Both the position numbers and the translations under genes were made by a program. DNA of 63,776 nucleotides from Eubacteriales bacterium (GTDB lineage Bacteria > Bacillota > Clostridia > Christensenellales > CAG-138), in contig JAVBPK010000068.1 of NCBI GenBank assembly GCA_031549625.1, positions 1 to 63,776 of the forward strand, written 5' to 3'. Below, piece after piece: positions 4,379-61,497 of the stretch. The first letter of the stretch is position 1, and the number at the start of each line of letters is the position of its first letter. Below the pieces are notes generated by a model. The model did not search any database. It was not told where the DNA came from and saw only the letters and a program-made list of their open reading frames with translations.

Positions 4379-4394
4379 GCGTTTTGGCGTATGA

Positions 4395-4427
4395 GGGGAT
4401 GATGAGCGGCGATCGTACATCATCCCC
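4395..4427 (+). terminator. Intrinsic terminator after the HTH/repeat gene
   Basis: Perfect 10-bp stem ggggatgatg / catcatcccc with a 13-nt loop, followed by a pyrimidine/T-rich tail. Confidence 0.6.
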
Positions 4428-4447
4428 CCTTCTTCATTCTATTTCGA

Positions 4448-16850: not shown

Positions 16851-18845
16851 CTACAACAAGTTGTTAATATCCAAAATAAGGCTGATGCTGCCGTTGCCCA
16901 GTATGGTGCAGCCGGCAATGCCTTTTAGCCATGCTTGTGAGCGTGAGATATAGAAAGGCATGGGCTTGATAACCGTTTGTTGCTCGCCCAGCAGTTTATC
17001 CACAAACAGGCAATATGATTCTTTATCTCCGTCTATCAAGATGAGAATGCCATCCTGAAATCTTGTGACGTTTGTTTCTATATCAAGCAGGTTATGCAGC
17101 TTTACAACCGAATAACAGTCGTCGCGGATGAGTATCATCTCGTTGCCGTCCGGGTCGAGGAACACATCCTCCGCCTTCGGCTTAAACGATTCGCGGATGT
17201 TCAGCAGCGGCACGATAAACACCTGCTCGCCCACCTGCACCTGCATGCCGTCGATGATGGCAAGTGTAAGCGGAATGCGCAGCGTGACAGTCATGCCCTC
17301 GCCCAGCGTGCTGTCCACGGAAATGGAACCGCCCATTTTCTGAATGTTTTTCGTAACAACATCCATGCCGACGCCGCGGCCGGAAAATTCCGTGACGGCG
17401 TCTTTTGTGGAAAAGCCCGCCGAGAATATAAGCGCGTACGCTTCTTTATCGGAAATTTCGGAGGCGGGCTTTTTCACGAGGCCGCGCTCGATGCCTTTGG
17501 CGATGAGCGCTTCTCTATCCAGCCCTTTGCCATCGTCGGAGATGATGATGAGGATATCGCCGCCTGTATTGCGCGCTTCCAATGTGACCTGACCGGTGCG
17601 CTTTTTGCCCATGCTTTCGCGCACGTCCGGCAGTTCGATGCCGTGGTCCATGGAATTGCGGATGATGTGCATCAGCGGGTCGGAAAGGTTGTCGATGACG
17701 TTCTTATCCATTTCCGTGTCTTCGCCGATGATGATGAGGTCGGCCAGCTTATTTGTTTTTTTGCTCATATCGCGCACAATGCGCTCCAGCTTGTGGAACG
17801 TGGCCGAAATCGGAATCATGCGGATGGACATAACGGTGTCCTGCAGCTCGTCCGTCAGCTTACGCAGCTGGCGGGACGCTTTTGAAAAGTTTTCCAAATG
17901 CAGCCCGTCTATATCCGGGTTTTTGGTTACGGTGGTTTCTGTAATGACGATTTCACCAACCAAATCCAGAAGCTTGTCCAGCTTGTCCAAGCGAACGCTC
18001 ATGTAGCTGTACTTTTGCTGCTGGGGCGCGGCTTGCGCGTCCTGCTGCGCCGGTTCGCGCTGTGTACGGCGATCCAAAGGCGTCTGCGACGGGTCGGGCA
18101 GCTCGTCGAGCGTAACGCTTTCCAGCAGGATATTGCCCTTTATCTTGGCCAGCAAGGTGGGCAAATCCGCAGCGGATTCAATAAACATGGTGAAGCCGTT
18201 CGCCACGATCAGGTCATCGGTATTATCCTTGAGCAGATCTTCCGGTACTGTGGCCACGCGTTTGCACAGGGGCTCGATGGATTTTACCACGCCGAAAGCG
18301 CGGATGTTTTCCATCTTGCATTCTTTTTCGAATATGATGGAGCATTTGTAGAAACGCAGCACGCCTTCCGCGCTTGCGGTCGCTTGTTCCGCCTTTTCGG
18401 CGGGCGCCTGTTCCGCGGCCTTTTCAGCTTTTGGCGCGGCGTTTCCTTTCAGCTCGTCATAATAGGCGTGGATGGATTTCTGTAGCTCGGAAGCGTCCGC
18501 GTCGGCCTGCTGGCCCGCCTGCAGCTTTTCCATTTCGGTGCGCAAAAAATCTTCCGCCGAGAACACCATGTCGCACAGCTTGCGGTGGTCGTAAGCGGCG
18601 TCGATATTGTCCCGGATATAGCCAAACAAATCTTCCATGACGTGCGAAAGCTTTGCCAGCTGGTCAAATTCCATCATGGCGGAAGAGCCTTTGATCGTAT
18701 GGAGGATGCGGAAGATGGACGCTACCTGCTCGGCTGTGAAGCGGTCGCTTTTGTCCGCGACCAGCAACAACCCGTCCAACTGCTCAATCAACTGCAGATT
18801 CTCGTAAATATAAATCTCTAAAAGCGAAGTATCGGCTTGCGTCAT
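16851..18845 (-). CDS. cheA: Chemotaxis histidine kinase CheA
   Basis: P1 motif HTIKGSSAMM; HATPase boxes HIIRNSMDHGIE, DDGKGLD and GRGVGMDVV; CheW-like C-terminal domain. Confidence 0.95.
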   Translation of the reverse strand: MTQADTSLLEIYIYENLQLIEQLDGLLLVADKSDRFTAEQVASIFRILHTIKGSSAMMEFDQLAKLSHVMEDLFGYIRDNIDAAYDHRKLCDMVFSAEDFLRTEMEKLQAGQQADADASELQKSIHAYYDELKGNAAPKAEKAAEQAPAEKAEQATASAEGVLRFYKCSIIFEKECKMENIRAFGVVKSIEPLCKRVATVPEDLLKDNTDDLIVANGFTMFIESAADLPTLLAKIKGNILLESVTLDELPDPSQTPLDRRTQREPAQQDAQAAPQQQKYSYMSVRLDKLDKLLDLVGEIVITETTVTKNPDIDGLHLENFSKASRQLRKLTDELQDTVMSIRMIPISATFHKLERIVRDMSKKTNKLADLIIIGEDTEMDKNVIDNLSDPLMHIIRNSMDHGIELPDVRESMGKKRTGQVTLEARNTGGDILIIISDDGKGLDREALIAKGIERGLVKKPASEISDKEAYALIFSAGFSTKDAVTEFSGRGVGMDVVTKNIQKMGGSISVDSTLGEGMTVTLRIPLTLAIIDGMQVQVGEQVFIVPLLNIRESFKPKAEDVFLDPDGNEMILIRDDCYSVVKLHNLLDIETNVTRFQDGILILIDGDKESYCLFVDKLLGEQQTVIKPMPFYISRSQAWLKGIAGCTILGNGSISLILDINNLL

Positions 18846-18911
18846 AGGTTTGCCCCTTTGTCAACGTAAATTTTCCCGCAGAATCTGCGGGTGACGGCCT
18901 GCCCGCGCTGT

Positions 18912-19268
18912 TTAGCCCAAGCTGCTGAGCGCATTGATAATGACGTCTTCTTTGAAGGGCTTTACGATAAATCCTTTGGCTCCGGAAATAATCGCTTCGC
19001 GAACCATACTTTCCTGCCCCATGGCAGAGACCATCACCACGTTTGCCCCGGAATTGACGGCCAGAATCTCTTTGAGGCCCTGCAACCCGTCCTTTTCGGG
19101 CATGGTAATGTCCATCGTAACGATATCGGGCTGAAGCTCTTTGTATTTTTGCACGGCAACCTCGCCGTTCTCCGCTTCGCCTACGACTTCGTACCCATGC
19201 TTCGTAAGCATATTTTTGATCGATACCCGCATAAAGGCGGCATCATCCACGATAAGCACTCTTTTCAT
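18912..19268 (-). CDS. cheY: Chemotaxis response regulator CheY
   Basis: 118-aa REC domain with motifs LIVDDAAFMR, TMDITMP and KPF. Confidence 0.92.
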   Translation of the reverse strand: MKRVLIVDDAAFMRVSIKNMLTKHGYEVVGEAENGEVAVQKYKELQPDIVTMDITMPEKDGLQGLKEILAVNSGANVVMVSAMGQESMVREAIISGAKGFIVKPFKEDVIINALSSLG

Positions 19269-19383
19269 AAAATTATGAAACCTCCTGTGTTATTGCAATA
19301 TATATACCGATTGCTCATTTCCCTTTTTATTATGTATATAGTATCCTAACGGATAAAATATTGCCAGCTCAGTTATTGTAAGC

Positions 19384-20616: not shown

Positions 20617-20773
20617 ATCTTTTTTTAAAATGATACGATAAATTATTAACCGGAATTTGGAGTTTGTAACGGTTTTTGCGGCTTGTTTTTCCGGGATGCG
20701 CCCCAAAAACGCTGCGCGTTAATAATATATTTATAAAGTGAAACGACCCCCCCTTTTTTTTCAGGAGAAAAAT

Positions 20774-22345
20774 ATGAGAATAGACCTTTCCCAGGTACAA
20801 AACAGATTACAGCAACAGCCCATCCTGATAGAACCGCAGCAGCGAACGCCGTTCGAAAAAGGCGACGTCGTGCAGGCTACCGTGATTTCCACAGATGGCG
20901 AAACGGTGCTGTTTAAAAACGAGCAGGGCGGCCTGTTCAAGGCAAAAATGGCGACGGATATGCTGCTTAACCCGCAAGATAAAGTGGAGCTGGTGGTTAC
21001 GGCAAAAAACGAGAGCCAGCTCAGCATGCGAGTAATCACCGTCGATACAAGCGCCGCAAGCGCGCAAAAGGCGTCCGCGCAGACAAACACGCTCCTGAAC
21101 GCGCTGGACGGCGCCCAAATGGAAAGCGCGCGCGCTGCTTTGGCCGCCTTCAAGGAATCGGGCGTAGAGCCCAGCAAGCCACTGCTTACCGCCGTGCTGC
21201 AAATCATGCAGGAAACACAGCTCAGCGCGAAAGAGGCCGTGTTCTTTGCCGCCAATCAAATCGACGTTTCCGAGGAATCCATCCGCGCATTCCAAAGCCT
21301 GCAGCAGGGCGCTTCCACGGGTGAGGCGGTGTTTGAAATAGCGCAGGAAGCCGCTAGCCTTGCCGAGCAGGCGGCCCAGCAGCCCACCCCCCAAACGGAT
21401 GGCGCGCCGTTGCCTGTGCGCAGCCAGCTCGAAGCCGCCATATTGGCACTGAACGGCGGTAAGGGAACAACCGCGCCGCAAACAAACGCAGCGGCACCGC
21501 AAGCGGAGGCGCAGGCGGCCGCAACGCAACCGCAAGCTGAAACAGCCGCCAGAGCGCAGCAGCCCGCGCCGCAAGCCGCGGCTGATCCGCTAGCTCCGCA
21601 GCAAGCACCGCAGCAAGCCCCGCAGCAAGCACCGCAGCAAGCAACAGCGCCGGCGCTTCAAACGCCCGTGTTGCGGCCGGAGGCGGCCGCCATGGCCGGC
21701 GCGCAGGCTCAAACGGGCGCGCAGGAACCCGCGGGGCAAGGGATGCGGGAGATTTCCGCCAAGCTGCTTTCCATGTTTTTAGAAATCGACGCCAGCACGG
21801 ATGGCGCAAAGATAAAGCGAGCCGCCGCCGAAGCGGCTGCGCAGGAGACCACGCTGAAGGACATGCTGCAAAGCGCGGATATCCGCGGCAAAGCCATGGC
21901 GGGCAAGCTGGCGGATGTGGCGGCGCAATCCAAACTGACGCAGGATGTGCAGCGTTTTTATTGCCTGCATATTCCCGTGCATCATCAATCGCATGACACG
22001 GCGGACATGTATATCTACAAAAACAAAAAGCGCGGCAAGGGAATCGACCCGGAAGACACCGCCATATTGATCGGCCTTTCCACGGAGACGATGGGGCGCG
22101 TAGAAAGCCTGATCCGCGTCGAAAAGCGAAATATTTCGCTGAAGTTCGATGTGGAAAGCGAGGAAGCCGTTCCTTATATACGCGAACGCGCGCGCGAACT
22201 TTTTCCCGTGTTGAAGCAATACCAGTATAATCTGGTAGATACAAAGGTGGGCAGGCTGGCCGAGGCCACAACAATAGCTAACGCGGAGGAAACGCTGGCC
22301 ACAGCAATGCGCAAGCCCAAGATATATGTTGATTGTAAAATATGA
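20774..22345 (+). CDS. Flagellar hook-length control (FliK)-like protein
   Basis: ATG at 20774 follows AGGAGA. The central part is rich in Ala/Gln/Pro. The C-terminal part LIGLSTETMGRVESLIRVEKRNISLKFDVESEEAVPYIRERARELFPVLKQYQYNL resembles the FliK C-terminal domain. It is followed by an FlhB C-domain gene. Confidence 0.65.
   Translation: MRIDLSQVQNRLQQQPILIEPQQRTPFEKGDVVQATVISTDGETVLFKNEQGGLFKAKMATDMLLNPQDKVELVVTAKNESQLSMRVITVDTSAASAQKASAQTNTLLNALDGAQMESARAALAAFKESGVEPSKPLLTAVLQIMQETQLSAKEAVFFAANQIDVSEESIRAFQSLQQGASTGEAVFEIAQEAASLAEQAAQQPTPQTDGAPLPVRSQLEAAILALNGGKGTTAPQTNAAAPQAEAQAAATQPQAETAARAQQPAPQAAADPLAPQQAPQQAPQQAPQQATAPALQTPVLRPEAAAMAGAQAQTGAQEPAGQGMREISAKLLSMFLEIDASTDGAKIKRAAAEAAAQETTLKDMLQSADIRGKAMAGKLADVAAQSKLTQDVQRFYCLHIPVHHQSHDTADMYIYKNKKRGKGIDPEDTAILIGLSTETMGRVESLIRVEKRNISLKFDVESEEAVPYIRERARELFPVLKQYQYNLVDTKVGRLAEATTIANAEETLATAMRKPKIYVDCKI
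21593..21640 (+). repeat. Four tandem 12-bp units encoding (APQQ)4 inside the FliK-like gene
   Basis: gctccgcagcaa gcaccgcagcaa gccccgcagcaa gcaccgcagcaa. Confidence 0.85.
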
Positions 22346-26654: not shown

Positions 26655-28835
26655 ATGAAATGGTATAGAAACTTAAAGATATCCGGCAAATTAACGTTCG
26701 TATTTGTCATCATCATTATTCTTGCAGCGGCTTTGTGCACGGTGCTTACAGAAAAAATGAAGAGCATGCGCAAAGATTATAACGAAATGATGGAGATATA
26801 TGGAAATTCACAAGGATATGCCGGGGCAATCATGTCCACCTTCCAGGAAGTAAAAAGCTTGTTGGCTATGGTGAACCTCGAAGATAGCCAGGAAATGGCT
26901 ATGGAAGTGAAAACCAAGATGGATGAGGAATTCGACCCTCTCTTGCAAGAAAGTATAGCCGCATATGCGGCCACATGCAAAACGACGGAAGAAACGACGT
27001 CGTTTGAACAGCTCATGCCCAAAATAGAGGCCGCGGTAGCCATGCGTGACCAAGTGCTGGCCTTGGCAATAGCCGGTGACTTTGACGGAAGCAAAGGATT
27101 TTTGCTTTCCCCAGAGAGTGATGCTGCGATGGGTGACTTTGAAAAGCATTTGGATTCCATGCTGGCACTCAACAAAAGGAACGCCGACGCGGCGCTGGCG
27201 GCATCAACAAAAAACATAAGCACGTTTATCACCGTAGCAATCATTGCCATGGTTTCCGTATTGTTGCTCGTCATAGTGTTCCTGATCATCGTATCCCGGG
27301 GCATTACGAACCCGCTGCGCCAGCTTTCCGGCATGGCGGAGAAACTTGCAGAAGGTTGCATCGACGTGCAGTACCAGGGTGAGGTCAGCAAAGACGAAAC
27401 GGGCATTCTCGTACACTCGCTAGAGAACGTGATTGCGTCTATCAAGAGCCTTGTGGCCGACACGGACATGCTCACCGACGCGGCAGCGGCAGGCAAGCTT
27501 TCCGTTCGCGCGGACGCCAACAAACACAAGGGCGAATACAAAAAGATCGTTGAAGGCATCAACGACACGCTGGACGCTATCATCGCGCCCGTGCAACTGG
27601 CCAGCGATGTGCTGCATGATATTTCTTTGGGCAACCTGAACGGGCGCGTGGAAGGGAATTTCCGCGGCGACCACGCCATCCTTCAAAAAGCGGTCAACGA
27701 GACCGTGCAGGAGCTCAATTCCTACATCGGCCAGGTGAAAGACGTGCTGGGTGCCATCGCTACAGGCGACCTCAGCGTGTCCATCAATACGGAATTCCGC
27801 GGCGATTTCTCCGCTCTGAAAGAGGCCATCAACTCCATCGCCCTTTCGCTGAGCAATGTTATGCAAAATATCAACACCGCTTCCGAGCAGGTGGCAGCAG
27901 GCACGAAGCAGGTTTCCGACGGTGCGCAGGCCGTTTCGCAGGGCGCTACGGAGCAGGCCAGCGCTATTGAAGAACTGACCGCCACCATCACCCAAATCGC
28001 GGAACAGGTCAAGCAGACCGCCAGCAATGCGAACGAAACCAACCAGCAGGCGATCATGACTAAGCAGTACGCCGTCGAAGGCAACGAGCTGATGAAGGGC
28101 ATGCAGGGCGCCATGGAAGAAATCAACAGAGCGTCCGCAAATATCTCCCGCATCATCAAGGTTATTGACGATATCGCCTTCCAGACAAACATACTCGCGC
28201 TGAACGCTGCCGTAGAAGCAGCGCGCGCCGGCGTACACGGAAAGGGATTTGCCGTGGTCGCCGAAGAAGTTCGAAACCTCGCTGCAAAGAGCGCGGCAGC
28301 CGCAAAAGAAACAACCGACCTTATCGAGGGTTCCATCAAAAAGGCCGAGGCGGGTACGCAGATCGCCAATGAGACAGCAAAATCGCTCGCCAAGATCGTG
28401 GATTCCGTGGAGACCTCCGTCGCGGTTGTCGGGCAGATCGCCGTGGCTTCCAGCGAACAGGCCACTGGCGTGTCGCAGATCAACAAGGGCATCGAGCAGC
28501 TTTCGCAGGTGGTGCAAGCAAACTCGGCCACTTCTGAAGAAGCTGCCGCCGCCGCCGAAGAGCTTTCCAGCCAGGCCGAGATGCTCAAGCAAATGGTCAG
28601 CCGCTTCCAGACCCGCGGCGAGCAAAGCGTGCGCAACAACGGTGGTATGCGCCAGCTGGCCGCTCCCGCGCATCGCGCCAAGGCTTCCGGCTTGTTCTCC
28701 AATGACGTGGATACAATGGAGTACGATCGCCGCATGAACGCCGATTTTGAGCGCGAGATGGATCGCTATTCCGGCATAGATCATGCCGAAGAAATCAAAA
28801 TCGTATTGAGCGACAATGAATTTGGGAAATATTAA
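26655..28835 (+). CDS. Transmembrane methyl-accepting chemotaxis protein (2 TM, HAMP repeats)
   Basis: TM1 is [17 protein letters not shown] and TM2 is [23 protein letters not shown]. Several HAMP-like units are present. Tip consensus is [35 protein letters not shown]. Confidence 0.93.
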
Positions 28836-28993: not shown

Positions 28994-29019
28994 TAAATTC
29001 GCGGGAAAAGCGCCGATAT
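28994..29019 (+). promoter_or_regulatory. Sigma-28 promoter TAAA-N14-GCCGATAT upstream of cheR
   Basis: Perfect -10 consensus GCCGATAT at 29012-29019, with TAAA at 28994-28997. Confidence 0.6.
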
Positions 29020-41990: not shown

Positions 41991-42647
41991 ATGAATCTAT
42001 ACGAACAATTACGTGAAGGCGAGACGGTGGAGATGCGGATAGGCGCGATCATCACCAAATCAAAAATCGAACGCATAGACAGCGCAACACATTTCGTCGT
42101 CACACAGCCGACTCATAAGCTGTTGCCGGTGGCTTTTGATTTGGATGAACAAATTGAATTTTTCTTCTTCCGTAACAATGGCGTGTATTCGTTTCGCGCG
42201 GCCTTTTCAGGGCGGGCGATGATGGGCAAAATGCGTGTCTGCGCGTTTACGGCCGTAACAGACATGAAGAAGAGCCAGCGCAGGCTTTCGTTCCGGCTTG
42301 CCGTACCGCTTTCCATGACATTGCGCCGGAAGAGCCAATACAACCAAAGCAAGGCGGTGGAATACCCGGCTTTTACAATCAATATTTCGCAGGAAGGCGC
42401 GTTGTTCAGTTGTCCTTCACGTTTTCCCGTAGGGGCGCGCCTGCTGCTGGAGATCAAGTTCTCGGCTACGGAGCTGTGCATAGTAAACGCGGAGGTGCTG
42501 CGCTGTGAGCTGCCGCTCAACAAGGACGATCCGTATCTCATCGGCGTGAAGTTTGTGAACTTGACAAAGCACGATCAATCGCAGATAGCTAAATTCATAC
42601 TTAATACGCAGATTGACGAACGAAGACGCAAGCAGCTGGAAGACTAA
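41991..42647 (+). CDS. PilZ-domain protein (YcgR/MotI-like c-di-GMP receptor)
   Basis: RxxxR motif in QRRLSFR and (D/N)xSxxG motif in NISQEGALF, after an N-terminal PilZN-like domain. Confidence 0.85.
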   Translation: MNLYEQLREGETVEMRIGAIITKSKIERIDSATHFVVTQPTHKLLPVAFDLDEQIEFFFFRNNGVYSFRAAFSGRAMMGKMRVCAFTAVTDMKKSQRRLSFRLAVPLSMTLRRKSQYNQSKAVEYPAFTINISQEGALFSCPSRFPVGARLLLEIKFSATELCIVNAEVLRCELPLNKDDPYLIGVKFVNLTKHDQSQIAKFILNTQIDERRRKQLED

Positions 42648-45609: not shown

Positions 45610-46572
45610 ATGGCACCAGGTTATTATTTTTTATTCGCGTTTTTCATATTTACTTTGATTGCGGCGGTCGTGTTTTTGGTGGACAGGCTGAAGCGTTCTC
45701 GCAATACGGATTTAGAGAACTTAATCAAAGATAAAGAAAAGCGCGTATTCAAGCTGTATCAGAACCTGGAGGATTTGATCTCCAGCGTGGAAGAGTACGC
45801 GGAAGAAACCAAGGACGATATGCGCGGTTTTCGCGATGAATCCATGGCGATCCTGCAAAGCATGCAGCGTTTTCAACAGGTCCCGGCTTCAAAGCGGCGC
45901 GAAGCGGCTGAAGCGGCCGCGCCCGCGGCGGCGATCATGACGCCCGTGCCGCAAACCGCGCAGGCGGAATCCCCGCAGGCAGAACCAGCCCCTGCAGATA
46001 AAAAAGAGCCGGTGAAGGAAGCGGCTCAGCCGGCGGCTGCGCAAAAAGAGGCGCCCGCGCCGGCTGCCAAACCAACCCTGACTCCCGCGGCAAAGCAGGC
46101 GGCCACGGCAGGCGCAGCCGCAGCGAGGCCAACCGCCATAAAAGCGGCTGCTGAAAAGAAAGTGCCGCCCCTCAAGCCGGCCAACGCGGCGCAGAAGAGC
46201 AGCTCATCCGCAAAGGCGGGCAAACCGGCGGAAAAACCGGCCCAACCGGCCAACGCGAAACCAAACGAAAAAGAAACCCCGCAGAAAGCGGCCGCGAAAG
46301 CGCCGCAACCGGCGGCAAGGCTCGAAGCGCAGCAGGTACCCAAACCGGCCGCACAGCCAATCATGCAAAAGCTGCCGGAGCAACCGAAGGCCGCGCCAAA
46401 GAGGCCGCCGGAAATAAAACGCCCGCCCGAGGCGGCAAAGGGCAAGTCAAAAGGCAAGGTGGACGACGTGCGCCGCCTGAGCAACCAAGGGCTCGACGAA
46501 GAACAAATAGCGAAAGAACTTGGCCTTTCCAGGGGTGAAGTGTCATTGATTACGGGGATGTTAAAAAAATAA
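45610..46572 (+). CDS. Hypothetical membrane-anchored protein: N-terminal TM, coiled coil, Ala/Pro/Lys low-complexity region and a C-terminal HTH-like segment
   Basis: TM is YYFLFAFFIFTLIAAVVFLV. C-terminus reads DDVRRLSNQGLDEEQIAKELGLSRGEVSLITGMLKK. Confidence 0.6.
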   Translation: MAPGYYFLFAFFIFTLIAAVVFLVDRLKRSRNTDLENLIKDKEKRVFKLYQNLEDLISSVEEYAEETKDDMRGFRDESMAILQSMQRFQQVPASKRREAAEAAAPAAAIMTPVPQTAQAESPQAEPAPADKKEPVKEAAQPAAAQKEAPAPAAKPTLTPAAKQAATAGAAAARPTAIKAAAEKKVPPLKPANAAQKSSSSAKAGKPAEKPAQPANAKPNEKETPQKAAAKAPQPAARLEAQQVPKPAAQPIMQKLPEQPKAAPKRPPEIKRPPEAAKGKSKGKVDDVRRLSNQGLDEEQIAKELGLSRGEVSLITGMLKK

Positions 46573-48317: not shown

Positions 48318-48728
48318 ATGGACATACGGCAATGCAAAGAGTGCGGAAAGCTTTTTCAATACGTGACAAAGCCAATTTGCCCGGAATGCCTGGATGAATT
48401 TGACAATATGTTTCTGAAAGTTCGGGACTATATATATAAAAATCCCGATGCAGATATAGCCGAAATCGCCGAAAAAACCGAGGTAAAAGAAAAGAGAATT
48501 CTTGAGTTTTTAAAGGAAGAACGGTTGAGCTTAAGCGATGCCAACGGGGTGCTGTCCTGTGAATCATGTGGAAGGTCCATACCGGCAGGCCGCTTTTGCA
48601 AAGGGTGTAAGGAGTCGCTGAGCAAAGCTCTCCAGCCACCAGCGCCTGTGCAAACCAAACCGGAGCCTATGCTTACATCAAGGCCCTCCGCGCGGATGCA
48701 CATCACGCAAACACATACAAAAAAATAG
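48318..48728 (+). CDS. Flagellar operon zinc-ribbon protein, YvyF-like
   Basis: CKECGKLF..CPEC zinc ribbon followed by a winged-helix-like segment. It occupies the position before flgM, as in the B. subtilis yvyF-flgM-flgN-flgK-flgL operon. Confidence 0.75.
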   Translation: MDIRQCKECGKLFQYVTKPICPECLDEFDNMFLKVRDYIYKNPDADIAEIAEKTEVKEKRILEFLKEERLSLSDANGVLSCESCGRSIPAGRFCKGCKESLSKALQPPAPVQTKPEPMLTSRPSARMHITQTHTKK

Positions 48729-53574: not shown

Positions 53575-53616
53575 GGCGGCGCGGGCGCGCAACACGCCTT
53601 TTTCTTTTTTATTTTT
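53574..53616 (+). terminator. Intrinsic terminator after csrA
   Basis: aaggcg..GC-rich..cgcctt stem followed by TTTCTTTTTTATTTTT. Confidence 0.75.
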
Positions 53617-53704
53617 CAAATGACATATTTTGTAATGTGGAGAAGCGCGTGCAGCGCACAGGTGATTCTTGAACAACTGACTGGTCGATTGTTTGGAGGG
53701 GTAC

Positions 53705-55420
53705 ATGAGGGAAATCATCACAACGGTTCTCGAAAGGTGCGAGGGCTGCAACCGTTGCGTTCGCGTTTGCCCGCTGGAAGAAAGCAATGTGGTTTTTTGT
53801 GACAGCGACGGGCAAATCAAAGTGAAGATCGATTCGGAAAAATGTATTGCATGCGGTGCCTGCCTTGATGTTTGCCAGCATGAGGCGCGTGATTATATCG
53901 ACGACACGGAACGGTTTATGCGCGATCTGAAGTCTGGCGTGAACATTGCCATGCTTGTGGCGCCGGCCATGCGTGCCAATTTTAAAAACGGGGAATCGAT
54001 ACTGGCCTGGCTGCGCAACCAGGGCGTCTCGCTGATAGCCGATGTTTCTTTAGGCGCGGATATCTGCACGTGGGCGCATATACGCTATGTGCAGCAAAAC
54101 CAGCCGGAAACGCTCATTACGCAGCCCTGCCCGGCAATTGTCGGATATATTGAAAAGTACCAGCCTACTCTGCTCGCATCCCTTTCGCCGGTGCATAGCC
54201 CCATGCTTTGCACCGCCGTCTTTATGCGCAGGCATCTTGGTGTGCAAGGCAAAATAGCCGCGTTGTCGCCCTGCATCGCCAAAGCAAACGAATTTGACGA
54301 AACGGGACTCGTGCAATACAATGTCACATTCAAAAAGCTGCAAAAATATATCGAAACAAACGGCGTGCATATTCCGCATGCCGATTTTGTGTTCGACCAT
54401 GTTGATTCGTCCTTGGGCAGTATTTATTCCATGCCGGGTGGCCTGAAAGAAAACGTCGAATTCTACATCGGCAAGGGGCTGCGCGTAGACAAATCAGAGG
54501 GCACCGGCGTCGTGTATAAGCATATAGACGATTTTGCCGCCGAGCGCGCCGGAAACTTACCGGCGATATTCGACGTGCTGAACTGCGCCGAAGGCTGCAA
54601 CGCGGGCACGGGATGCTTGCACAAGCAGTCCCTTTTCGAAATCAATAAAAAAATGGATATCGCCCGCCAAAAGGCGCTGCAAGAGAATCAAAAAACAGAT
54701 AAATACGAGGAAACCGAGCTTTTTAATCTTTTTGATGAACAACTGCAAATGACGGACTATCTCCGCCGCTACACGCCGCAAGCAGTCCATTCCATCTCCT
54801 ATACGCATACGGACGTCGAGAAGGCTATGCAGGATCTTGGCAAAAAAACGCACGCGCAGCGTAATCACAATTGCTACGCTTGTGGCTGCGAAACATGCGA
54901 AAACATGGCTGCGCGCATCGCCAAGGGCATCAATGTGCCGGAAAACTGCATAGAAAAAACGCGCATAAGCATATTGCAGAGCCATGAAGCCTTCTTGCAC
55001 GAACGCCAAAACAGCACCGAAAACTTAAATAGAATTTCCGGTGAAGTGGCCGGTATCAAGCAGCAGTTTGAAGAGGTGCTGGCGGGCGTGCGCGAAGTGG
55101 AAAGCATTATAGAAAGCTACGGAAAAATGGCGGACGTGGTAGACAGCATGGCCATGCAAACACAACTGCTTTCACTAAACGCTTCTGTGGAAGCTGCCCG
55201 CGCCGGTACAGCCGGCAAGGGATTTGCCGTCGTTGCGCAGGCCATACGCGAGCTTGCCTCCAGCGTGCAAACTTCCGTCAATGAAGTGGGCGATACCGGG
55301 TCGCGCGCCAAAAACACCATACAGGCTATCGCCGAAGTCAGCGAAAGCGTAGACGATTCCATACTGCGCGTATCGGACTACGTGAATAAAATAGCGGAAA
55401 TGATGAATATGACCGAGTAG
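53705..55420 (+). CDS. Soluble chemoreceptor: 2x[4Fe-4S] ferredoxin motifs + [FeFe]-hydrogenase-like H-cluster domain + extra Cys cluster + short MCP signalling domain
   Basis: ATG at 53705 lies 6 nt after GGAGG. Motifs in order: [88 protein letters not shown]. No TM segment. Confidence 0.85.
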   Translation: MREIITTVLERCEGCNRCVRVCPLEESNVVFCDSDGQIKVKIDSEKCIACGACLDVCQHEARDYIDDTERFMRDLKSGVNIAMLVAPAMRANFKNGESILAWLRNQGVSLIADVSLGADICTWAHIRYVQQNQPETLITQPCPAIVGYIEKYQPTLLASLSPVHSPMLCTAVFMRRHLGVQGKIAALSPCIAKANEFDETGLVQYNVTFKKLQKYIETNGVHIPHADFVFDHVDSSLGSIYSMPGGLKENVEFYIGKGLRVDKSEGTGVVYKHIDDFAAERAGNLPAIFDVLNCAEGCNAGTGCLHKQSLFEINKKMDIARQKALQENQKTDKYEETELFNLFDEQLQMTDYLRRYTPQAVHSISYTHTDVEKAMQDLGKKTHAQRNHNCYACGCETCENMAARIAKGINVPENCIEKTRISILQSHEAFLHERQNSTENLNRISGEVAGIKQQFEEVLAGVREVESIIESYGKMADVVDSMAMQTQLLSLNASVEAARAGTAGKGFAVVAQAIRELASSVQTSVNEVGDTGSRAKNTIQAIAEVSESVDDSILRVSDYVNKIAEMMNMTE

Positions 55421-55531
55421 TTGCTTTTTACATGAACATGGTGAACGTGCAAAGTTAAAGAGGGGCGCGGGCGTCCCTCCTTTTTGATGCTGAAAGCTTA
55501 TGCGAAAAAGCGGCTGTGTGGCAGAGCCCTC

Positions 55532-55581: not shown

Positions 55582-56724
55582 TTATCCCAACAGTTGCAGC
55601 ACGCCCTGCGGAGCGGAGTTGGCCTGCGCCAGCATGGCGGTGGAGGCCTGCGTGAGGATGTTGTTGCGCGTGAAGTTTGTCATTTCCTGCGCCATGTCGA
55701 GGTCTCTGATGCGGCTTTCCGCAGCGGAGAGGTTCTCGGAGGACGTGTCGAGGTTGTTGATCTTGTGGTTCAGCCTGTTTTGCATAGCGCCCAACGAGGC
55801 ACGCTGTGTGGAAACGGCGTTCAAAGCGTCGTTTACGCGGGAGATCGCGTGGCGCGCGTCACGGCCTTCGGCGATGCTCTGGTTGTTCACACCCAGAATG
55901 GTGGAGTCCATGGCGGCGATGTTCAGCTTCAGCTCGTCGCCCTGGTTTGCGCCTGTTTGTATGGTGATGGGCTTGGCTGTCCATGCGACGGTTTTGCTGT
56001 TGATAGCGGCCGTTGCTTTTGTGGCCATCGTTGCCGCGTCTGCGATGTCGGCGTCGGCGGTAAATGTCAGCGCGGAGCCGTCATTCAGCTGCAGGCGCAC
56101 TTCGTCGCCGTTCTTGATATCGAGATTCTTTACTTGTTCGTCGGTAAGCGAGAGCTTGCCAACTACGCCGGATGTGGCGCCTGTGAGCGTGGCGGTAAGC
56201 GTGCCGGAAGCGGCGCTTGCTGCCATGGTGTACGTGTCGCTCGCGACCAGGCCCGTGCCCGCCGTGAAGCCGGCAAGACCGCCCGCGGCTGCTGTGCCGG
56301 AATAAGAACCGTCGATGACGCCCATGTCGTTGAACTTTGTCTTTTTCGCCGTGTCGTCCAGCTCTTTAACGAGCTGCTGGAATTCCGCGTCCAAAGCCGC
56401 ACGGTCTATGCTGGTTTCGTTTGTGTCGGAAGCAGACTGTACGGAGAGTTCACGCATACGCTGGAGAATGTTGTGGCTTTCCTGGAGCGCGCCTTCGGCT
56501 GTCTGAACCAAGGAAATCGCGTCGGAAGAGTTCTTCGAAGCCATTTTCAGGCCGCGGATCTGCGCGCGCATTTTTTCTGAAATGGCCAGGCCGGCAGCGT
56601 CGTCACCTGCGCGGTTTACGCGGTAGCCGCTCGAGAGCTTTTCCATGGATTTCGCCACGGAGTTGGTGTTGATGGTGTACTGGCGGTGGGTATTCATCGC
56701 CATAATGTTGTTGTTGATACGCAT
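55582..56724 (-). CDS. fliC: Flagellin, copy 1 (380 aa)
   Basis: ATG at 56724 follows GGAGGA. N-terminus reads MRINNNIMAMNTHRQYT..GYRVNRAGDDAAGLAISEKMRAQIRGL. C-terminus reads ..MTNFTRNNILTQASTAMLAQANSAPQGVLQLLG. Confidence 0.95.
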   Translation of the reverse strand: MRINNNIMAMNTHRQYTINTNSVAKSMEKLSSGYRVNRAGDDAAGLAISEKMRAQIRGLKMASKNSSDAISLVQTAEGALQESHNILQRMRELSVQSASDTNETSIDRAALDAEFQQLVKELDDTAKKTKFNDMGVIDGSYSGTAAAGGLAGFTAGTGLVASDTYTMAASAASGTLTATLTGATSGVVGKLSLTDEQVKNLDIKNGDEVRLQLNDGSALTFTADADIADAATMATKATAAINSKTVAWTAKPITIQTGANQGDELKLNIAAMDSTILGVNNQSIAEGRDARHAISRVNDALNAVSTQRASLGAMQNRLNHKINNLDTSSENLSAAESRIRDLDMAQEMTNFTRNNILTQASTAMLAQANSAPQGVLQLLG

Positions 56725-56769
56725 TGATAAATTCCTCCATGAATTGTTTATTCGGCATCTTGCCTTTTT
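56725..56769 (-). promoter_or_regulatory. Conserved flagellin leader block: GCCGAATA box (sigma-28 -10-like) plus an AATTC-ATGGAG-GAATT hairpin that presents GGA/SD (candidate CsrA site)
   Basis: Minus strand reads aaaaaggcaagatGCCGAATAaacAATTCatGGAgGAATTtatcaATG. The block recurs upstream of all four flagellin genes. Confidence 0.45.
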
Positions 56770-56902
56770 AGAGTTTGGAATGAACGGCGGTGAAATGCCG
56801 CCAGAAACAAGGTGTTTGCGTGGCTGGTCGGTTAAAAAACGGCTGCCATCCGTGGCGGCCAGCATATTTTAGGGCGCAAGCGCCGAAAAATCGGACAGCT
56901 AT

Positions 56903-56952: not shown

Positions 56953-58164
56953 TTATTGCAACAGTTGCAGTACGCCCTGCGGAGCCGCGTTGGCCTGCGC
57001 CAGCATGGCCGTAGAAGCCTGCGTGAGGATGTTGTTGCGCGTGAAGTTCGTCATTTCCTGCGCCATGTCGAGGTCTCTTATGCGGCTTTCCGCGGCGGAG
57101 AGGTTCTCAGCGGAGGTGTCGAGGTTGTTGATCTTGTGGTTCAGCCTGTTCTGCAAAGCGCCCAGGCCGGCACGCTGTGTGGAGATCAGGTTCAACGCCG
57201 TGTTTGTGATGGTGATGGCGTCGCGCGCTTCCGCACCCGTCGCGATTGTGTACGGTTTGGCAGCCGCGGTTTTGAGGCCCAGCGCGGTTGCGTTCATGTT
57301 GCCGAGGCTAATCTTCAGCTCGTCGCCCTGGTTTGCGCCTGTCTGGATGGTCAGCGTTTTGCCCGGATCATAGGCTGCAAACGCCACGCCGCCTGCTTTG
57401 AATTCGGCGGTAAGCGCGGCTGCCCAGCCGGTAGCATCATTTGTAGCCGGCGCAAGGTCTTTGCTAAGCTGGTACGTAAAGGAAGAACCGTCGCCGAAAT
57501 TAATGGTGTGTGCGCCGGCTTTGGTGTGATCCGCGGTCAGTGCTACTTTATAGGTGTTTGCGGCAATAGCTGTGTTTGTAGAATCTGTTCCGGCAAATGT
57601 AAAGCCGTTCGCTGCGCTCAACGTGACGGTGACGGCGCCTGCACCCATTTTTTCGCCGCCGCTAAAGAATGTGCTGCCGATCAGAGCCGTGGCAGCAGTG
57701 CCCTTGGAGGCCGCGTTGTCCATGACATTGCCGATTTGGCCATAGCTGCCATCGATAACGCCCATGTCGTTGAACTTCGTCTTTTTCGCCGTGTCGTCCA
57801 GCTCTTTGATGAGCTGCTGGAATTCCGCGTCCAAAGCCGCGCGGTCTATGCTGGTTTCGTTCGTGTCGGAAGCGGACTGTACGGAGAGTTCACGCATACG
57901 CTGGATGATGTTGTGGCTTTCCTGCAGCGCGCCTTCCGCTGTCTGAACCAGGGAAATCGCGTCGGAAGAGTTCTTGGAAGCCATTTTCAGGCCACGGATT
58001 TGAGCGCGCATCTTTTCGGAAATGGCCAGGCCGGCAGCGTCGTCGCCAGCGCGGTTTACGCGGTAGCCGCTCGAGAGCTTTTCCATGGACTTCGCCACGG
58101 AGTTGGTGTTGATGGTGTACTGGCGGTGCGTGTTCATCGCCATAATGTTGTTGTTGATACGCAT
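56953..58164 (-). CDS. fliC: Flagellin, copy 2 (403 aa, distinct central domain)
   Basis: ATG at 58164. The termini match copy 1 and the central part is unrelated (..GQIGNVMDNAASKGTAATALIGSTFFSGGEKMGAGAVTVTLSAANGFTFAG..). Confidence 0.95.
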   Translation of the reverse strand: MRINNNIMAMNTHRQYTINTNSVAKSMEKLSSGYRVNRAGDDAAGLAISEKMRAQIRGLKMASKNSSDAISLVQTAEGALQESHNIIQRMRELSVQSASDTNETSIDRAALDAEFQQLIKELDDTAKKTKFNDMGVIDGSYGQIGNVMDNAASKGTAATALIGSTFFSGGEKMGAGAVTVTLSAANGFTFAGTDSTNTAIAANTYKVALTADHTKAGAHTINFGDGSSFTYQLSKDLAPATNDATGWAAALTAEFKAGGVAFAAYDPGKTLTIQTGANQGDELKISLGNMNATALGLKTAAAKPYTIATGAEARDAITITNTALNLISTQRAGLGALQNRLNHKINNLDTSAENLSAAESRIRDLDMAQEMTNFTRNNILTQASTAMLAQANAAPQGVLQLLQ

Positions 58165-58210
58165 TGATAAATTCCTCCATGAATTCATTTTTTCGGCATC
58201 TTGCCTTTTT
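58165..58210 (-). promoter_or_regulatory. Conserved flagellin leader block (GCCGAAAA box + GAATTC-ATGGAG-GAATT hairpin)
   Basis: Minus strand reads aaaaaaggcaagatGCCGAAAAaatgAATTCatGGAgGAATTtatcaATG. Confidence 0.45.
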
Positions 58211-58293
58211 TGTGATGGGAACTAACGACAGGCGTTTTTATCGCTGCCGGAAACTATTTTTACGGGGTTTCACCGTAAAAGCCGCAAATCTAT

Positions 58294-58340: not shown

Positions 58341-59483
58341 TTATTGTAATAGCTGGAGAACGCCCTGTGGGGCTGCGTTGGCCTGCGCCAGCATGGCGGT
58401 GGAGGCCTGCACGAGAAGATTGTTGCGTGTGAAGTTTGTCATTTCCTGCGCCATGTCGAGGTCTCTTATGCGGCTTTCCGCGGCGGAGAGGTTCTCGGCG
58501 GAGGTGTCGAGGTTGTTGATCTTGTGGTTCAGCCTGTTTTGCAAAGCGCCCAGCGCGGCACGCTGTGTGGAAACGGCATTCAGCGCGTCGTTTGTGCGGG
58601 AGATCGCGTGACGGGCATTGCGTCCCTGCGCGATGTTCTGGGTTTTCACGCCCAGTATGGTGGCGTCCATCGCGGCGATGTTCAGCTTCAGCTCGTCGCC
58701 CTGGTTTGCGCCCGTCTGTATGGTGATGGGCTTACCTGTCCATGTGACGGTTTTGCTGTCGATAGCGGCTGTTGCTTTTGTGGCCATCGTTGCCGCATCC
58801 GCGATATCGGCGTCGGCGGTAAATGTCAGCGCGGAGCCGTCATTCAGCTGTAGGCGCACTTCGTCGCCGTTCTTGATATCGAGATTTTTTACTTGTTCGT
58901 CGGTAAGCGTAAGCTTGCCAACCTCGCCCGCTGTGGCACCGGTAAGTGTGACGGTGAGCACGCCAGATGCAGCAGCCGCTGCCATGGTGTAAACTTCGTC
59001 TTTTACCAGGCCTATGCCCGCCGTAAATCCGACGAGGCCGCCCGCGGCCGCTGTGCCGGAATAAGAGCCGTCGATAACGCCCATGTCGTTGAACTTTGTC
59101 TTTTTCGCCGTGTCGTCCAACTCTTTGATGAGCTGCTGGAATTCCGCATCCAAAGCCGCGCGGTCTATGCTGGTTTCGTTTGTGTCAGAAGCGGACTGCA
59201 CGGAGAGTTCGCGCATGCGTTGAAGCACGTTGTGGCTTTCCTGCAGCGCGCCTTCGGCTGTTTGAATCAAGGAAATAGCGTCGGAAGAGTTTTTGGAAGC
59301 CATCCGAAGTCCGCGGATTTGTGCGCGCATTTTTTCGGAAATGGCCAAGCCGGCTGCATCGTCACCCGCACGGTTTACACGGTAGCCACTCGAGAGCTTT
59401 TCCATGGATTTTGACACGGAAACGGTGTTGATGGTGTACTGACGGTGGGTATTGATCGCCATGATGTTGTTGTTGATACGCAT
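58341..59483 (-). CDS. fliC: Flagellin, copy 3 (380 aa, collinear with copy 1)
   Basis: The track ORF begins at MRINNN. The central domain is the same type as copy 1, with scattered substitutions. Confidence 0.95.
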   Translation of the reverse strand: MRINNNIMAINTHRQYTINTVSVSKSMEKLSSGYRVNRAGDDAAGLAISEKMRAQIRGLRMASKNSSDAISLIQTAEGALQESHNVLQRMRELSVQSASDTNETSIDRAALDAEFQQLIKELDDTAKKTKFNDMGVIDGSYSGTAAAGGLVGFTAGIGLVKDEVYTMAAAAASGVLTVTLTGATAGEVGKLTLTDEQVKNLDIKNGDEVRLQLNDGSALTFTADADIADAATMATKATAAIDSKTVTWTGKPITIQTGANQGDELKLNIAAMDATILGVKTQNIAQGRNARHAISRTNDALNAVSTQRAALGALQNRLNHKINNLDTSAENLSAAESRIRDLDMAQEMTNFTRNNLLVQASTAMLAQANAAPQGVLQLLQ

Positions 59484-59528
59484 TTTTCAATTCCTCCATG
59501 AATTGTTTATTCGGCATCTTGCCTTTTT
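59484..59528 (-). promoter_or_regulatory. Conserved flagellin leader block. Here the GCCGAATA box has a TAAA exactly 15 nt upstream.
   Basis: Minus strand reads aaTAAAataaaaaggcaagatGCCGAATAaaCAATTCatGGAgGAATTGaaaaATG. Confidence 0.5.
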
Positions 59529-59659
59529 ATTTTATTGTGAAGTTTGACGGCAAATGCTGCCGCCGGCAGGTTTGAAGCCAAAAGGCTTCGCTACACTTGC
59601 CATGGCAAACCATGGCGGAAACATATCTTACAGCGCCGCTGTAAAAAACAAGGGATCAC

Positions 59660-59708: not shown

Positions 59709-60890
59709 TTATTGCAGTAGTTGTAACACGCCCTGTGGGGCCGCGTTGGCCTGCGCCAGCATAGCGGTGGAGGCCTGCACGAGAATGTTATTCCGAGTGA
59801 ATGTCGTCATTTCCTGCGCCATGTCGAGGTCTCTTATGCGGCTTTCCGCAGCGGAGAGGTTCTCGGCGGAGGTGTCGAGGTTGTTGATCTTATGATTCAA
59901 CCTGTTTTGCAAGGCGCCCAGCGTGGCACGCTGTGTGGAAACGGCGTTGAGAGCATCGTTTGTGCGGGAAAGCGCGTGGCGCGCGTCGCGGCCCTGCGCG
60001 ATGGACGATTTGTTAACGCCCAGTATTGTTGCGTCCATGGCGGCGATGTTCACTTGCAGCTCGTCGCCCTGGTTTGCGCCCGTCTGTATGGTAATGGGCT
60101 TGCCCGTCCATACGATGTCGTCGGTGTCGTTGCCATCCATGGCCGCATTCACGTCTGCGGCCAGCGTTGTGACGTCCGTGATATCGCTCTGCGCCACGAA
60201 GCGCAGCGCGCTGCCGTCATTGAGCTGCAGGCGGACGTCGTCGCCCGTTTTGTAGTCCAGCAAACCAATCTGTATGTCGGTAAGCGTGAGGGAACCTACA
60301 ATTGCGCCTGTGCTGTTTTCAAGCGTCAGCAGGAAGTTGCCGTCGGCGTCCGTTCCGCTCGTGAGGGTATAGGTATCTGTCGCTACCATGCCCGTGCTGC
60401 CGACAAACTCCGTTAAGTATGCGGTGCCATTGCCGGCTAAAATGTTTGTCGTGGTGCCGGAACCGGAGTAGGAGCCGTCGATGACGCCCATGTTGTTGAA
60501 TTTTGTTTTGGCGGCGGTATCGTCGAGCTCTTTGATGAGCTGCTGGAATTCCGCATCCAAAGCCGCGCGGTCTATGCTGGTTTCGTTTGTGTCCGACGCG
60601 GATTGCACGGCGAGTTCACGCATGCGCTGGAGTACGTTGTGGCTTTCCTGCAACGCGCCCTCGGCTGTTTGTACCAGGGAAATCGCGTCGGAAGAGTTTT
60701 TGGAAGCCATCCGAAGTCCGCGGATTTGGGCGCGCATTTTTTCGGAGATGGCCAAACCGGCTGCGTCGTCGCCTGCCCTGTTCACACGGTACCCGCTCGA
60801 AAGCTTTTCCATAGACTTCGAAACGGAATTGGTGTTGATGGTGTATTGACGATGGGTATTCATCGCCATGATATTGTTGTTGATACGCAT
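59709..60890 (-). CDS. fliC: Flagellin, copy 4 (393 aa, distinct central domain)
   Basis: ATG at 60890 follows GGAGGA. The termini are conserved. The central part is unique (..GSGTTTNILAGNGTAYLTEFVGSTGMVATDTYTLTSGTDADGNFLLTLENSTG..). Confidence 0.95.
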   Translation of the reverse strand: MRINNNIMAMNTHRQYTINTNSVSKSMEKLSSGYRVNRAGDDAAGLAISEKMRAQIRGLRMASKNSSDAISLVQTAEGALQESHNVLQRMRELAVQSASDTNETSIDRAALDAEFQQLIKELDDTAAKTKFNNMGVIDGSYSGSGTTTNILAGNGTAYLTEFVGSTGMVATDTYTLTSGTDADGNFLLTLENSTGAIVGSLTLTDIQIGLLDYKTGDDVRLQLNDGSALRFVAQSDITDVTTLAADVNAAMDGNDTDDIVWTGKPITIQTGANQGDELQVNIAAMDATILGVNKSSIAQGRDARHALSRTNDALNAVSTQRATLGALQNRLNHKINNLDTSAENLSAAESRIRDLDMAQEMTTFTRNNILVQASTAMLAQANAAPQGVLQLLQ

Positions 60891-60935
60891 ATAGAATGCT
60901 TCCTCCATGAATGTTTTTCGGCCTCATGCCCAAAA
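60891..60935 (-). promoter_or_regulatory. Flagellin 4 leader: a GCCGAAAA box is present, but the AATTC/GAATT hairpin is absent
   Basis: Minus strand reads gggcatgagGCCGAAAAacattcatGGAGGAagcattctatATG. Confidence 0.4.
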
Positions 60936-61497
60936 AGCTACCGGACGATGCATCCTGCATTCTGTTTTCTGGCGATTCCGGCGCTATGGAAACGCGCGAA
61001 AACAGCGTCTAGTTCTTTTTACGTGTTTTCGCCTGAAAACTTTAGCAGAAAATGCATGTTTTTTTCATTTTAGCACCAATGCGCGGCGGTGTACACGAAA
61101 ATAGGCAAAAACAGGGTATTTATGGAAAAATATTTGCAAAAAAGTTGCCGTAATTTTTTGCCGCTTAGCAAAATGGATAAAAAATGTATTTTCCCAGATG
61201 TTTAACCAAAAAGTAAAAAATAACTATATATAGGGATTGGGAAAAATATGCATACTATATATTGCGATCCAGGCAATGCTTATATAAATTAAGGAGAAAA
61301 AGCTCGAATTATTGGCAAATATCGCGAAAAAAGTGTTGAATTACTCTATATTGGGGTATACAATGTATACAACACATAATATTGTGGTGATCATGTGTCC
61401 GGGCATGTTTTTTTCGATTACCCTTTGTACGACCAAGGGTTCTGGAAAAGTATTGCTTCAACCATGACGATGCATGAAGAAATATTAAGAATAACGG

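Follow-up and report, generated by a model that had tools for sequence, protein, structure and literature searches.

A predicted soluble chemoreceptor with a [FeFe]-hydrogenase-like sensor module and a short signalling hairpin in a bacterial flagellar and chemotaxis locus

The HydDB classification of hydrogenases includes a [FeFe] group C2 labelled 'Chemotactic (putative)', in which an H-domain is coupled to the signalling domain of methyl-accepting chemotaxis proteins (MCPs) and for which a putative role in chemotactic H2 sensing was proposed (Sondergaard, Pedersen and Greening 2016; PMC5037454). Later papers merely repeat this description, and the reviews and recent biochemical studies cover only the PAS-type (TmHydS) and stand-alone (TamHydS) sensory enzymes. 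We analysed a 63,776-nt contig of an Eubacteriales bacterium (JAVBPK010000068.1; the window, whose coordinates are used throughout except where a relative's locus is labelled L0xx) that carries a gene for a 571-residue protein with both domains on one polypeptide. We found no difference between this receptor and the class description, against which it was placed in C2 by its architecture. The 'chemotactic' sensory subgroup mentioned in a preliminary description of this DNA is thus group C2, and our literature search returned no functional study of an MCP-linked (group C2) member, as that description had supposed. The receptor is a further, ordinary member of a catalogued but uncharacterised kind and is unsurprising to a specialist. 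C2 matches in Clostridium acetogens were discarded after failing those authors' check for H-domain Fe-S motifs (PMC9431212). We considered this as an argument against the class and judged it not relevant, suspecting the discarded proteins to be ordinary MCPs whose resemblance to the C2 references lay in the MCP portion.

Enzymes of the HydS type are defined by two N-terminal [4Fe-4S] sites, an H-domain lacking the proton-relay cysteine C299 and a C-terminal Cx2Cx4Cx16C motif, the last of which marks out the M2e and M2f hydrogenases, the putatively sensory enzymes of groups D and C (PMC8163306). The receptor has all of these features. Its N-terminal module of 420 residues folds like a HydS-type sensory [FeFe] hydrogenase and possesses every metal-ligand cysteine of such an enzyme; it lacks the group-A proton relay and is followed directly by an MCP signalling hairpin (Table 1). 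We give about an even chance to the reading that this protein is a methylation-independent cytoplasmic taxis receptor for H2 (or redox state) of the HydDB [FeFe] group C2 type.

The central domain scored as Fe_hyd_lg_C in a Pfam run (PF02906; E 1.1e-24, 87.9 bits versus a cut-off of 22.1), with a match that spans profile positions 3–244 of 245. The NCBIfam models for group A and group B (B1) hydrogenases stayed far under their cut-offs (78 versus 406 and 122 versus 450). In a Foldseek search of the Protein Data Bank (PDB) with the AlphaFold2 model (mean pLDDT 84.6, pTM 0.71), the top 50 matches were all [FeFe] hydrogenases. CbA5H (8zqd) was the best of these at E 5.9e-17, followed by HydABC, DdH and CpI, and the alignments covered 370–476 columns. 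We drew motif correspondences from an alignment of solved hydrogenases with a 47-homologue profile, and the CpI numbers of receptor residues were assigned by motif identity, which we take from established knowledge. The four H-cluster ligands (C142, C190, C294 and C298) occur in canonical order in the L1, L2 and L3 motifs, align with their CpI counterparts and are invariant in 150 representatives that share just 37–57% identity. A phmmer search against the PDB gave alignments reaching residue 239 at most, and L3 was recovered with the family profile as a low-scoring segment. Its low score even with the profile is explained by the stretch between L2 and L3, which is approximately 40 residues shorter than in group A.

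The group A hallmarks C299, M353 and M497 are replaced by Pro141, Ser188 and Leu292; the profile alignment thereby bears out two substitutions named beforehand, Pro for the proton-relay cysteine and Leu for the methionine of the third motif. The equivalents of CpI E279 and E282 are not conserved in the receptor clade. These positions bear on whether the protein is instead a catalytically active hydrogenase with a mere coiled-coil tail, an explanation that would account for the presence of all four H-cluster ligands and of the K358 and E361 equivalents. However, the group-A proton pathway is absent, and an invariant Leu (L247) follows a Gly-Gly pair where TamHydS has its relay Glu252, although the alignment is ambiguous there. 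Furthermore, characterised relatives without C299 are very low in activity (PMC10407848), the tail is a genuine MCP signalling domain by its score, and the module occurs in fusions with many different signalling outputs. A catalytic role is, for these reasons, very improbable.

Conservation in the 150 representatives extends beyond the cluster ligands. The Q-P-C and S-P-C motifs (including S188), K193, E196, A86-P87, P166, G-G-L247, D290, L292, C294, G297, C298 and the four C-terminal cysteines are all invariant or near-invariant. K193 is the equivalent of K358, which in group A serves as ligand to the distal CN. Because residues at positions that line the 2Fe subcluster in catalytic enzymes are conserved as strictly as the cubane ligands, selection appears to act on the 2Fe pocket and not on the cubane alone. 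This pocket conservation is the best available argument, albeit an indirect one, that the module may bind a complete H-cluster. No hydE, hydF or hydG maturase gene was present on the 63.8-kb contig, which set the scope of this search within the genome. We also identified an extra cysteine, Cys169 (S-P-M-L-C; 54209–54211), three residues past the equivalent of CpI P324, which is kept by 52 of the 55 MCP-linked clade representatives and by 85 of the 95 others. Another, C121 (54065–54067), is invariant in the close family only. C169 and C121 may, for example, stand in for the proton relay or protect the 2Fe site as a ligand.

The same residues help to weigh the receptor as a sensor for redox or energy taxis. 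In that case the module would equilibrate with the ferredoxin/NAD(P)H pool via its N-terminal clusters, and the H-site would hold a plain cubane or a redox-only H-cluster. The presence of two N-terminal ferredoxin-type clusters, as in the electron-input domains of hydrogenases, is consistent with such a role, as is a soluble and methylation-independent receptor, a trait of known energy-taxis receptors. The H-domain is also highly divergent, and redox sensing has been proposed for PAS-bearing cytoplasmic receptors of the 24H class (PMC7534058). On the other hand, K193, E196, A86-P87 and G297, which correspond to 2Fe contacts in catalytic enzymes, are as invariant as the cubane ligands. Furthermore, TamHydS, the nearest characterised relative in architecture, assembles an H-cluster and reacts with H2 (PMC8163306). 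We consider redox sensing of this kind unlikely, although it is to be reckoned with.

The iron-sulfur sites on either side of the H-domain are equally well conserved. All eight N-terminal ferredoxin-type cysteines are invariant in family alignments. At the C-terminal end of the module, a match to the FeS family PF04060 (residues 389–416) scored 19.1 bits, slightly below the cut-off of 23, which relatives exceed. The preliminary description had read a C390-x2-C-x-C-x2-C motif at this site. Cysteines 390, 393, 395 and 398 are indeed there, but C395 is replaced by Tyr, Ser or Phe in most relatives, whereas C390, C393, C398 and C415 are invariant, making C415 the true fourth ligand. C415 sits one residue before the start of the signalling helix at residue 416 in the AlphaFold2 secondary structure.

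The C-terminus scored as an MCP signalling domain (MCPsignal, PF00015; residues 452–567, E 2.7e-19, 70.1 bits versus a cut-off of 34.6). Such Pfam scores lie well outside what chance would give. Each computational check named beforehand as able to refute the sensor or the MCP domain came out in their favour. The highest Kyte-Doolittle average over 19 residues is 1.41 in the receptor and 3.48 in the canonical MCP encoded in the window (26655–28835). The absence of a hydrophobic transmembrane segment, which had been read from the translation, is upheld by these values and indicates a soluble receptor. Like other MCPs, it is presumably a dimer. In the AlphaFold2 model, the N-arm helix has 84 residues (12 heptads) and the C-arm approximately 70 (residues 501–569/571; about 10 heptads). 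The earlier estimate of about 70 residues on each side of the tip therefore fits the C-arm and falls short for the N-arm, which has about 85 (416–500). As had been noted, both arms are far shorter than those of the window MCP, which measure approximately 170–200 residues.

The tip consensus expected of an MCP is present in the translation, and within it the family shows no variation at N492, E496, G501, G504, F507 and R515. Alignment of the hairpin to residues 344–456 of Tsr and to Thermotoga maritima receptors needs no gaps, and the Tsr alignment places G501 at the Tsr tip residue G390 and the hairpin at Tsr 305–460. BLASTP aligned the hairpin, tip included, with the window MCP at 41% identity in 87 columns, in which the identities are densest around the tip consensus. 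The invariance of the tip and this match make it plausible that the receptor docks the same CheA/CheW as the window MCP.

A hairpin this short could alternatively feed a Che-like pathway unrelated to motility, or serve only for dimerisation or as a scaffold, so that swimming would not be controlled. The arms are indeed much shorter than in the window MCP. In addition, we found no che, csrA, fliW, flagellin or other flagellar gene near the relatives in any of the best 80 related loci, the set to which all our neighbourhood counts refer. In Vibrio cholerae, it could not be settled which pathway 24H receptors use (PMC7534058). However, MCP genes are commonly scattered in genomes, and the receptor gene studied here lies inside a flagellar and chemotaxis locus. 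The intact, invariant tip consensus and the 41% identity to the window MCP around it argue against a role outside motility, which we consider improbable.

The short arms also bear on adaptation. We searched for the strict methylation consensus [ASTG][ASTG]xx[EQ][EQ]xx[ASTG][ASTG] and found no match in the receptor and matches at scattered positions in 3 of 47 family members, with no conserved E/Q pair column among them. The span of the hairpin does not take in Tsr methylation sites 297, 304, 493 or 502, and Tsr position 311 corresponds to Ser422. The canonical MCP of the window has consensus sites at residues 435 and 624, 86 and 102 residues from its tip and past the reach of the receptor hairpin. 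The earlier remark that no methylation heptads are visible holds for the receptor and for those short forms that we examined. Signalling would be independent of methylation, as neither arm reaches as far as the canonical methylation positions. By contrast, MCP-fused relatives with longer arms (617–654 aa) have a fixed consensus site at +63 or +70 from the tip in 11 of 44 cases, versus none in the eight forms shorter than 600 aa (the 571-aa receptor and two truncated entries included). This suggests that adapting and non-adapting versions of one sensor may coexist. The site is at +70 in P0136, P0176, P0191, P0194, P0206, P0226 and P0253 and at +63 in P0229, P0236 and P0261; SAQTEEISSS is an example of the C-arm consensus in the longer relatives.

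Full-length homologues of identical architecture (47–65% identity, approximately 565–600 aa) number more than 120 among the matches listed, under the database names 'methyl-accepting chemotaxis protein' or 'iron only hydrogenase large subunit-like protein'. Scanning a single genome per species identified carriers in at least 593 species genomes from Bacillota, Fibrobacterota, Desulfobacterota, Betaproteobacteria, Synergistota, Deferribacterota, Acidobacteriota, Cloacimonadota and Bdellovibrionota. We take 58 of the best 80 loci to be from termite-gut metagenome-assembled genomes (MAGs), as judged from accession prefixes; one is titled 'Candidatus Fibrimonas termitidis'. The ecology fits H2 sensing, since many carriers apparently come from the termite gut, an H2-rich habitat. 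Tandem paralogous MCP-linked copies are present in MAGs of Defluviitaleaceae (L053, 424–3866; L054, 612–4049), and several other MAGs have two copies on separate contigs (for example, L017/L022, L041/L057 and L044/L059).

A search with the 423-residue module against representatives clustered at 50% identity retrieved 625 proteins at E <= 1e-30, and the MCP hairpin is found on 55 of the best 150 module-bearing representatives. A Pfam scan of 10 of these 150 revealed fusions to PAS-HisKA-HATPase-REC-Hpt, GAF-histidine-kinase, GGDEF and SpoIIE/PP2C domains as well as stand-alone proteins of approximately 430–490 aa. Having been recombined with so many signalling outputs, the module of about 420 residues behaves as a sensor domain.

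The genes around the relatives give few functional clues. A second hydrogenase-like open reading frame (ORF) lies near the relative in 4 of the best 80 loci, and two annotated contexts of relatives are unrelated to each other. As synteny is not conserved, clues to function come from two loci, L075 and L051. In L075 (706–12684), apparently from a termite-gut Clostridiales MAG, the MCP-linked homologue (2653–4458) has hypD/hypE, which serve [NiFe] maturation, on one side and on the other a TamHydS-like operon coding for HATPase, a stand-alone 429-aa HydS-like protein, PHP, HydC, HATPase, HydB and HydA. Two different sensory-type modules thus lie beside a bifurcating hydrogenase in one genome. 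In L051, also apparently from termite gut, the homologue is 2 kb from HydC-HydB-HydA. We infer that the genomes of L075 and L051 must mature H-clusters.

A third locus, L081 (11948–15248), belongs to a 4.6-Mb genome with the relative P0020, where a convergent gene for a hybrid-cluster protein (Prismane), a ferredoxin-like gene and a Crp-family regulator form surroundings of the nitrosative or oxidative-stress type. This neighbourhood would suit a sensor of oxidants or inhibitory gases (O2, NO, CO), in which cluster damage or ligand binding would make a strict anaerobe respond as to a repellent. The steep counter-gradients of O2 and H2 in gut-wall habitats also count for such a sensor. Furthermore, H-clusters and 4Fe-4S clusters react with O2 and CO, and TamHydS forms a defined product with O2 and has altered affinity for CO (PMC8163306). 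However, the hybrid-cluster gene neighbours the relative in one locus only, and is convergent to it, whereas a module common to proteins in bifurcating-hydrogenase operons points to H2. We regard gas or oxidant sensing as distinctly unlikely.

Under the favoured reading of the receptor as a taxis receptor for H2 (or redox), H2 would bind to, or be slowly heterolysed at, the H-cluster, turnover being slow because no proton relay is available. This event would alter the redox and/or conformational state of the module, and the C-terminal cluster domain would act as a mechanical coupler that passes the change into the N-arm signalling helix. We favour conformational over electron-relay coupling because H2 leaves the C-terminal cluster of TamHydS unreduced but still brings about changes in secondary structure (PMC13104023). 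The tip of the signalling helix would then alter CheA activity via CheW and, through the CheA/W/R/B/C/D system, flagellar switching. In this scheme, the receptor would signal without CheR/CheB adaptation of its own and would report intracellular H2 or the H2/ferredoxin redox poise.

Several points weigh against this reading. The H-domain is very divergent, scoring 88 bits on PF02906 versus 330–338 for catalytic HydA in related loci. Neither a member of this family nor an enzyme with Pro in place of C299 is known to bind the 2Fe subcluster or react to H2. The failure of H2 to reduce the C-terminal cluster of TamHydS makes a simple electron relay through this cluster doubtful (PMC13104023). With 12 + 10 heptads under a bulky 420-aa head, it is questionable whether the receptor could join arrays of long membrane MCPs. 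The gene context is unconserved and rarely linked to hydrogenase or che genes. Lastly, H2 taxis has been reported only for Methanococcus (M. maripaludis), as a behaviour and without a receptor (PMC3817446).

A bolder and rather unlikely proposal is that the Q-P-C clade, with its invariant Pro, a conserved Cys169 close to the 2Fe pocket and no proton pathway that can be recognised, has a distinct H-cluster chemistry. It would then be a non-turnover H2-binding sensor or one free of 2Fe, read out mechanically via the helix capped by C415. The short form would be a non-adapting H2 receptor in cytoplasmic arrays of its own, and the first molecular H2 chemoreceptor. To our knowledge, no H2-taxis receptor is known in any organism. 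If MCP-linked proteins of this kind truly couple an H-cluster to CheA, they would account for the way in which motile anaerobes find their place in H2 gradients such as those of termite guts and syntrophic aggregates. They would also provide a compact, single-polypeptide system for studying signal transmission by sensory hydrogenases, which is still unsettled for TmHydS and TamHydS. A single gene adds little beyond another example, and its value lies in the open question of H2 chemoreception. At the level of the family, the analysis documents the Pro at the C299 position, the C-terminal cluster's true ligands, the C415 helix cap and the distinction between short, methylation-free forms and longer forms, some with a methylation consensus site.

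The gene itself is complete, and the 571-residue translation contains the motifs quoted in the preliminary description at the residues given there. The longest version of the ORF begins with a TTG codon at 53693, upstream of the ATG at 53705. We assigned the start to the ATG because it is preceded at 5 nt by GGAGG and because homologues begin at the same Met-Arg in the family alignment. The placement of the gene between a csrA terminator and the flagellin array was correct, with a hairpin after csrA and convergent flagellin genes downstream. Its description as monocistronic was in part sustained: hairpins at both ends and the convergent flagellins agree with it, but the 130-nt spacer upstream of the receptor has no match to a sigma-70-like promoter or to a sigma-D-like one (TAAA-N15-GCCGATAT). 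A transcript of its own is plausible for the receptor gene, and read-through from csrA is possible given the weak stem of the upstream hairpin.

Table 1. Positions of the receptor gene, the domains and motifs it encodes, and flanking features in the window.
Feature	Position	Strand	Basis or remark
Hydrogenase-like soluble chemoreceptor, complete gene, 571 codons + stop	53705..55420	+	ORF/translation, Pfam, homologues of same architecture
Two ferredoxin-type [4Fe-4S] motifs, residues 9–61 (C12, C15, C18, C22; C47, C50, C53, C57)	53729..53887	+	Fer4 Pfam families
Divergent [FeFe]-hydrogenase H-domain, residues 81–301	53945..54607	+	PF02906 (Fe_hyd_lg_C)
L1 motif T139-Q-P-C142-P; C142 = CpI C300, Pro141 at proton-relay C299 position	54119..54133	+	Profile alignment to solved hydrogenases
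L2 motif S188-P-C190-IAK193-AN-E196; C190 = C355, K193 = K358, E196 = E361, S188 = M353 (CpI)	54266..54292	+	Profile alignment, family conservation
L3 motif V291-L292-N-C294-AEG-C298-NAGTG; C294 = C499, C298 = C503, L292 = M497 (CpI)	54575..54613	+	Profile alignment, family conservation
C-terminal Cx2Cx4Cx16C, residues 390–415 (C390, C393, C398, C415), HydS-type [4Fe-4S] site	54872..54949	+	Invariant Cys; PF04060
MCP signalling hairpin, residues 416–571, helices 416–499 and 501–569	54950..55417	+	PF00015, AlphaFold2 secondary structure
Hairpin tip and CheA/CheW-interaction consensus, residues 489–518 (L489...A518)	55169..55258	+	Translation, family alignment
Ribosome-binding site GGAGG, 5 nt upstream of ATG	53695..53699	+	Read in sequence
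Terminator-like hairpin (53583–53599) and T-run after csrA stop (53574)	53583..53611	+	Weak stem, 5 pairs; separates gene from fliW-csrA unit
Terminator-like hairpin (55460–55479; 8 pairs, 6 G-C) and T-run, 40 nt past stop codon	55460..55485	+	Read in sequence
Flagellin leader regions	56700–56800, 58140–58240, 59460–59560, 60885–60985	-	Sequence reading

The window as a whole is a flagellar and chemotaxis locus. It encodes CheA (16854–18845, minus strand) with CheD and CheC, as well as FliD, FliS, FlgN, CheW, the 4HB-HAMP MCP, CheR, CheB, FlhF, FlhG, a FliA-type sigma factor, rod proteins, FlgK, FlgL, DUF6470, FliW and CsrA. The receptor gene follows CsrA and is in turn followed by four flagellin genes on the opposite strand and by FliF. 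The cheR, cheB and cheD genes mentioned in the preliminary description are thus accompanied by cheA, cheW and cheC, which makes the che gene set of the window complete and speaks for a role of the receptor in taxis. A near-perfect sigma-D/FliA-type promoter of the form given above lies at 28994–29018 (plus strand), 42 nt upstream of cheR, and no other site in the window matches so well.

Just upstream of their MRINNN starts, the four flagellin genes, which lie in tandem, have a 5' leader in common that is near-identical between them, AAAAAGGCAAGATGCCGAATAAACAATTCATGGAGGAAT. With fliW-csrA adjacent, such leaders resemble CsrA-binding or promoter elements. The true flagellin starts are at 56724, 58164, 59483 and 60908, and their MRINNN positions mark the listed ORFs 55582–56865 and 56953–58188 as over-extended. 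We also identified an HD_5/HD-GYP-type protein (15772–16842, minus strand) directly downstream of cheA on the same strand, which could be a cyclic di-GMP phosphodiesterase within the che operon, and a PilZ/YcgR-like gene at 41991–42644. Four ORFs of the flagellar locus, all on the plus strand, had no Pfam match at E <= 1e-5: 20738–22342 (535 aa), 45610–46569 (320 aa), 48318–48725 (136 aa) and 18891–19346 (152 aa).

TamHydS of Thermoanaerobacter mathranii (group D, M2e) is collinear with receptor residues 5–451, including the C-terminal motif, at 23% identity (PMC8163306, PMC10407848, PMC13104023). This value and the per-residue equivalences are approximate, as we rebuilt the TamHydS sequence by hand from a supplementary coding sequence that carried frame errors from optical character recognition. 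The two proteins share the two N-terminal 4Fe-4S sites, the short L2-L3 spacing and the C-terminal Cx2Cx4Cx16C; in both, M353 is Ser, M497 is Leu and C299 is lost (PMC8163306 for TamHydS). TamHydS has Ala137 where the receptor has Pro141, and lacks an output domain where the receptor carries the MCP hairpin. TamHydS E289 aligns with the invariant Asp290 of the receptor. Whereas the relay E252 of TamHydS directly follows the conserved Gly-Gly, the near-invariant E249/E252 of the receptor family come 3–6 residues later; BLASTP places a 2-residue gap here, and the alignment is ambiguous at 23% identity.

TmHydS of T. maritima (group C, M2f) resembles the receptor in having a sensory H-domain without C299, a C-terminal four-cysteine cluster and a fused signalling domain (PMC8163306). 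According to its published description, it differs in its PAS output and in having Gly for M353 and Ser for M497 (PMC8163306). Like TamHydS, it has Ala and not Pro at the C299 position (PMC10407848). A PAS domain after the C-terminal cluster is the criterion for group C M2f; our search gave no PAS hit in the receptor, whose hairpin starts at 416, whereas some relatives linked to histidine kinases do carry one.

The receptor hairpin is similar in length to that of the 24H class of MCPs, the shortest of Alexander and Zhulin (P. aeruginosa McpA-like; V. cholerae VC1406/VCA0864), which have approximately 12 heptads per arm and include soluble members with cytoplasmic redox-type sensors (PMC7534058). 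As judged from helix lengths only, its shortness is unusual but not unprecedented and is comparable to that of this class, from which it differs in a C-arm of only about 10 heptads and in a sensor that is hydrogenase-like and not PAS. The canonical MCP of the window (4HB-HAMP-HAMP-MCPsignal) has two transmembrane segments, HAMP domains and long arms, whereas the receptor is soluble with short arms; both presumably work through the same CheA/CheW.

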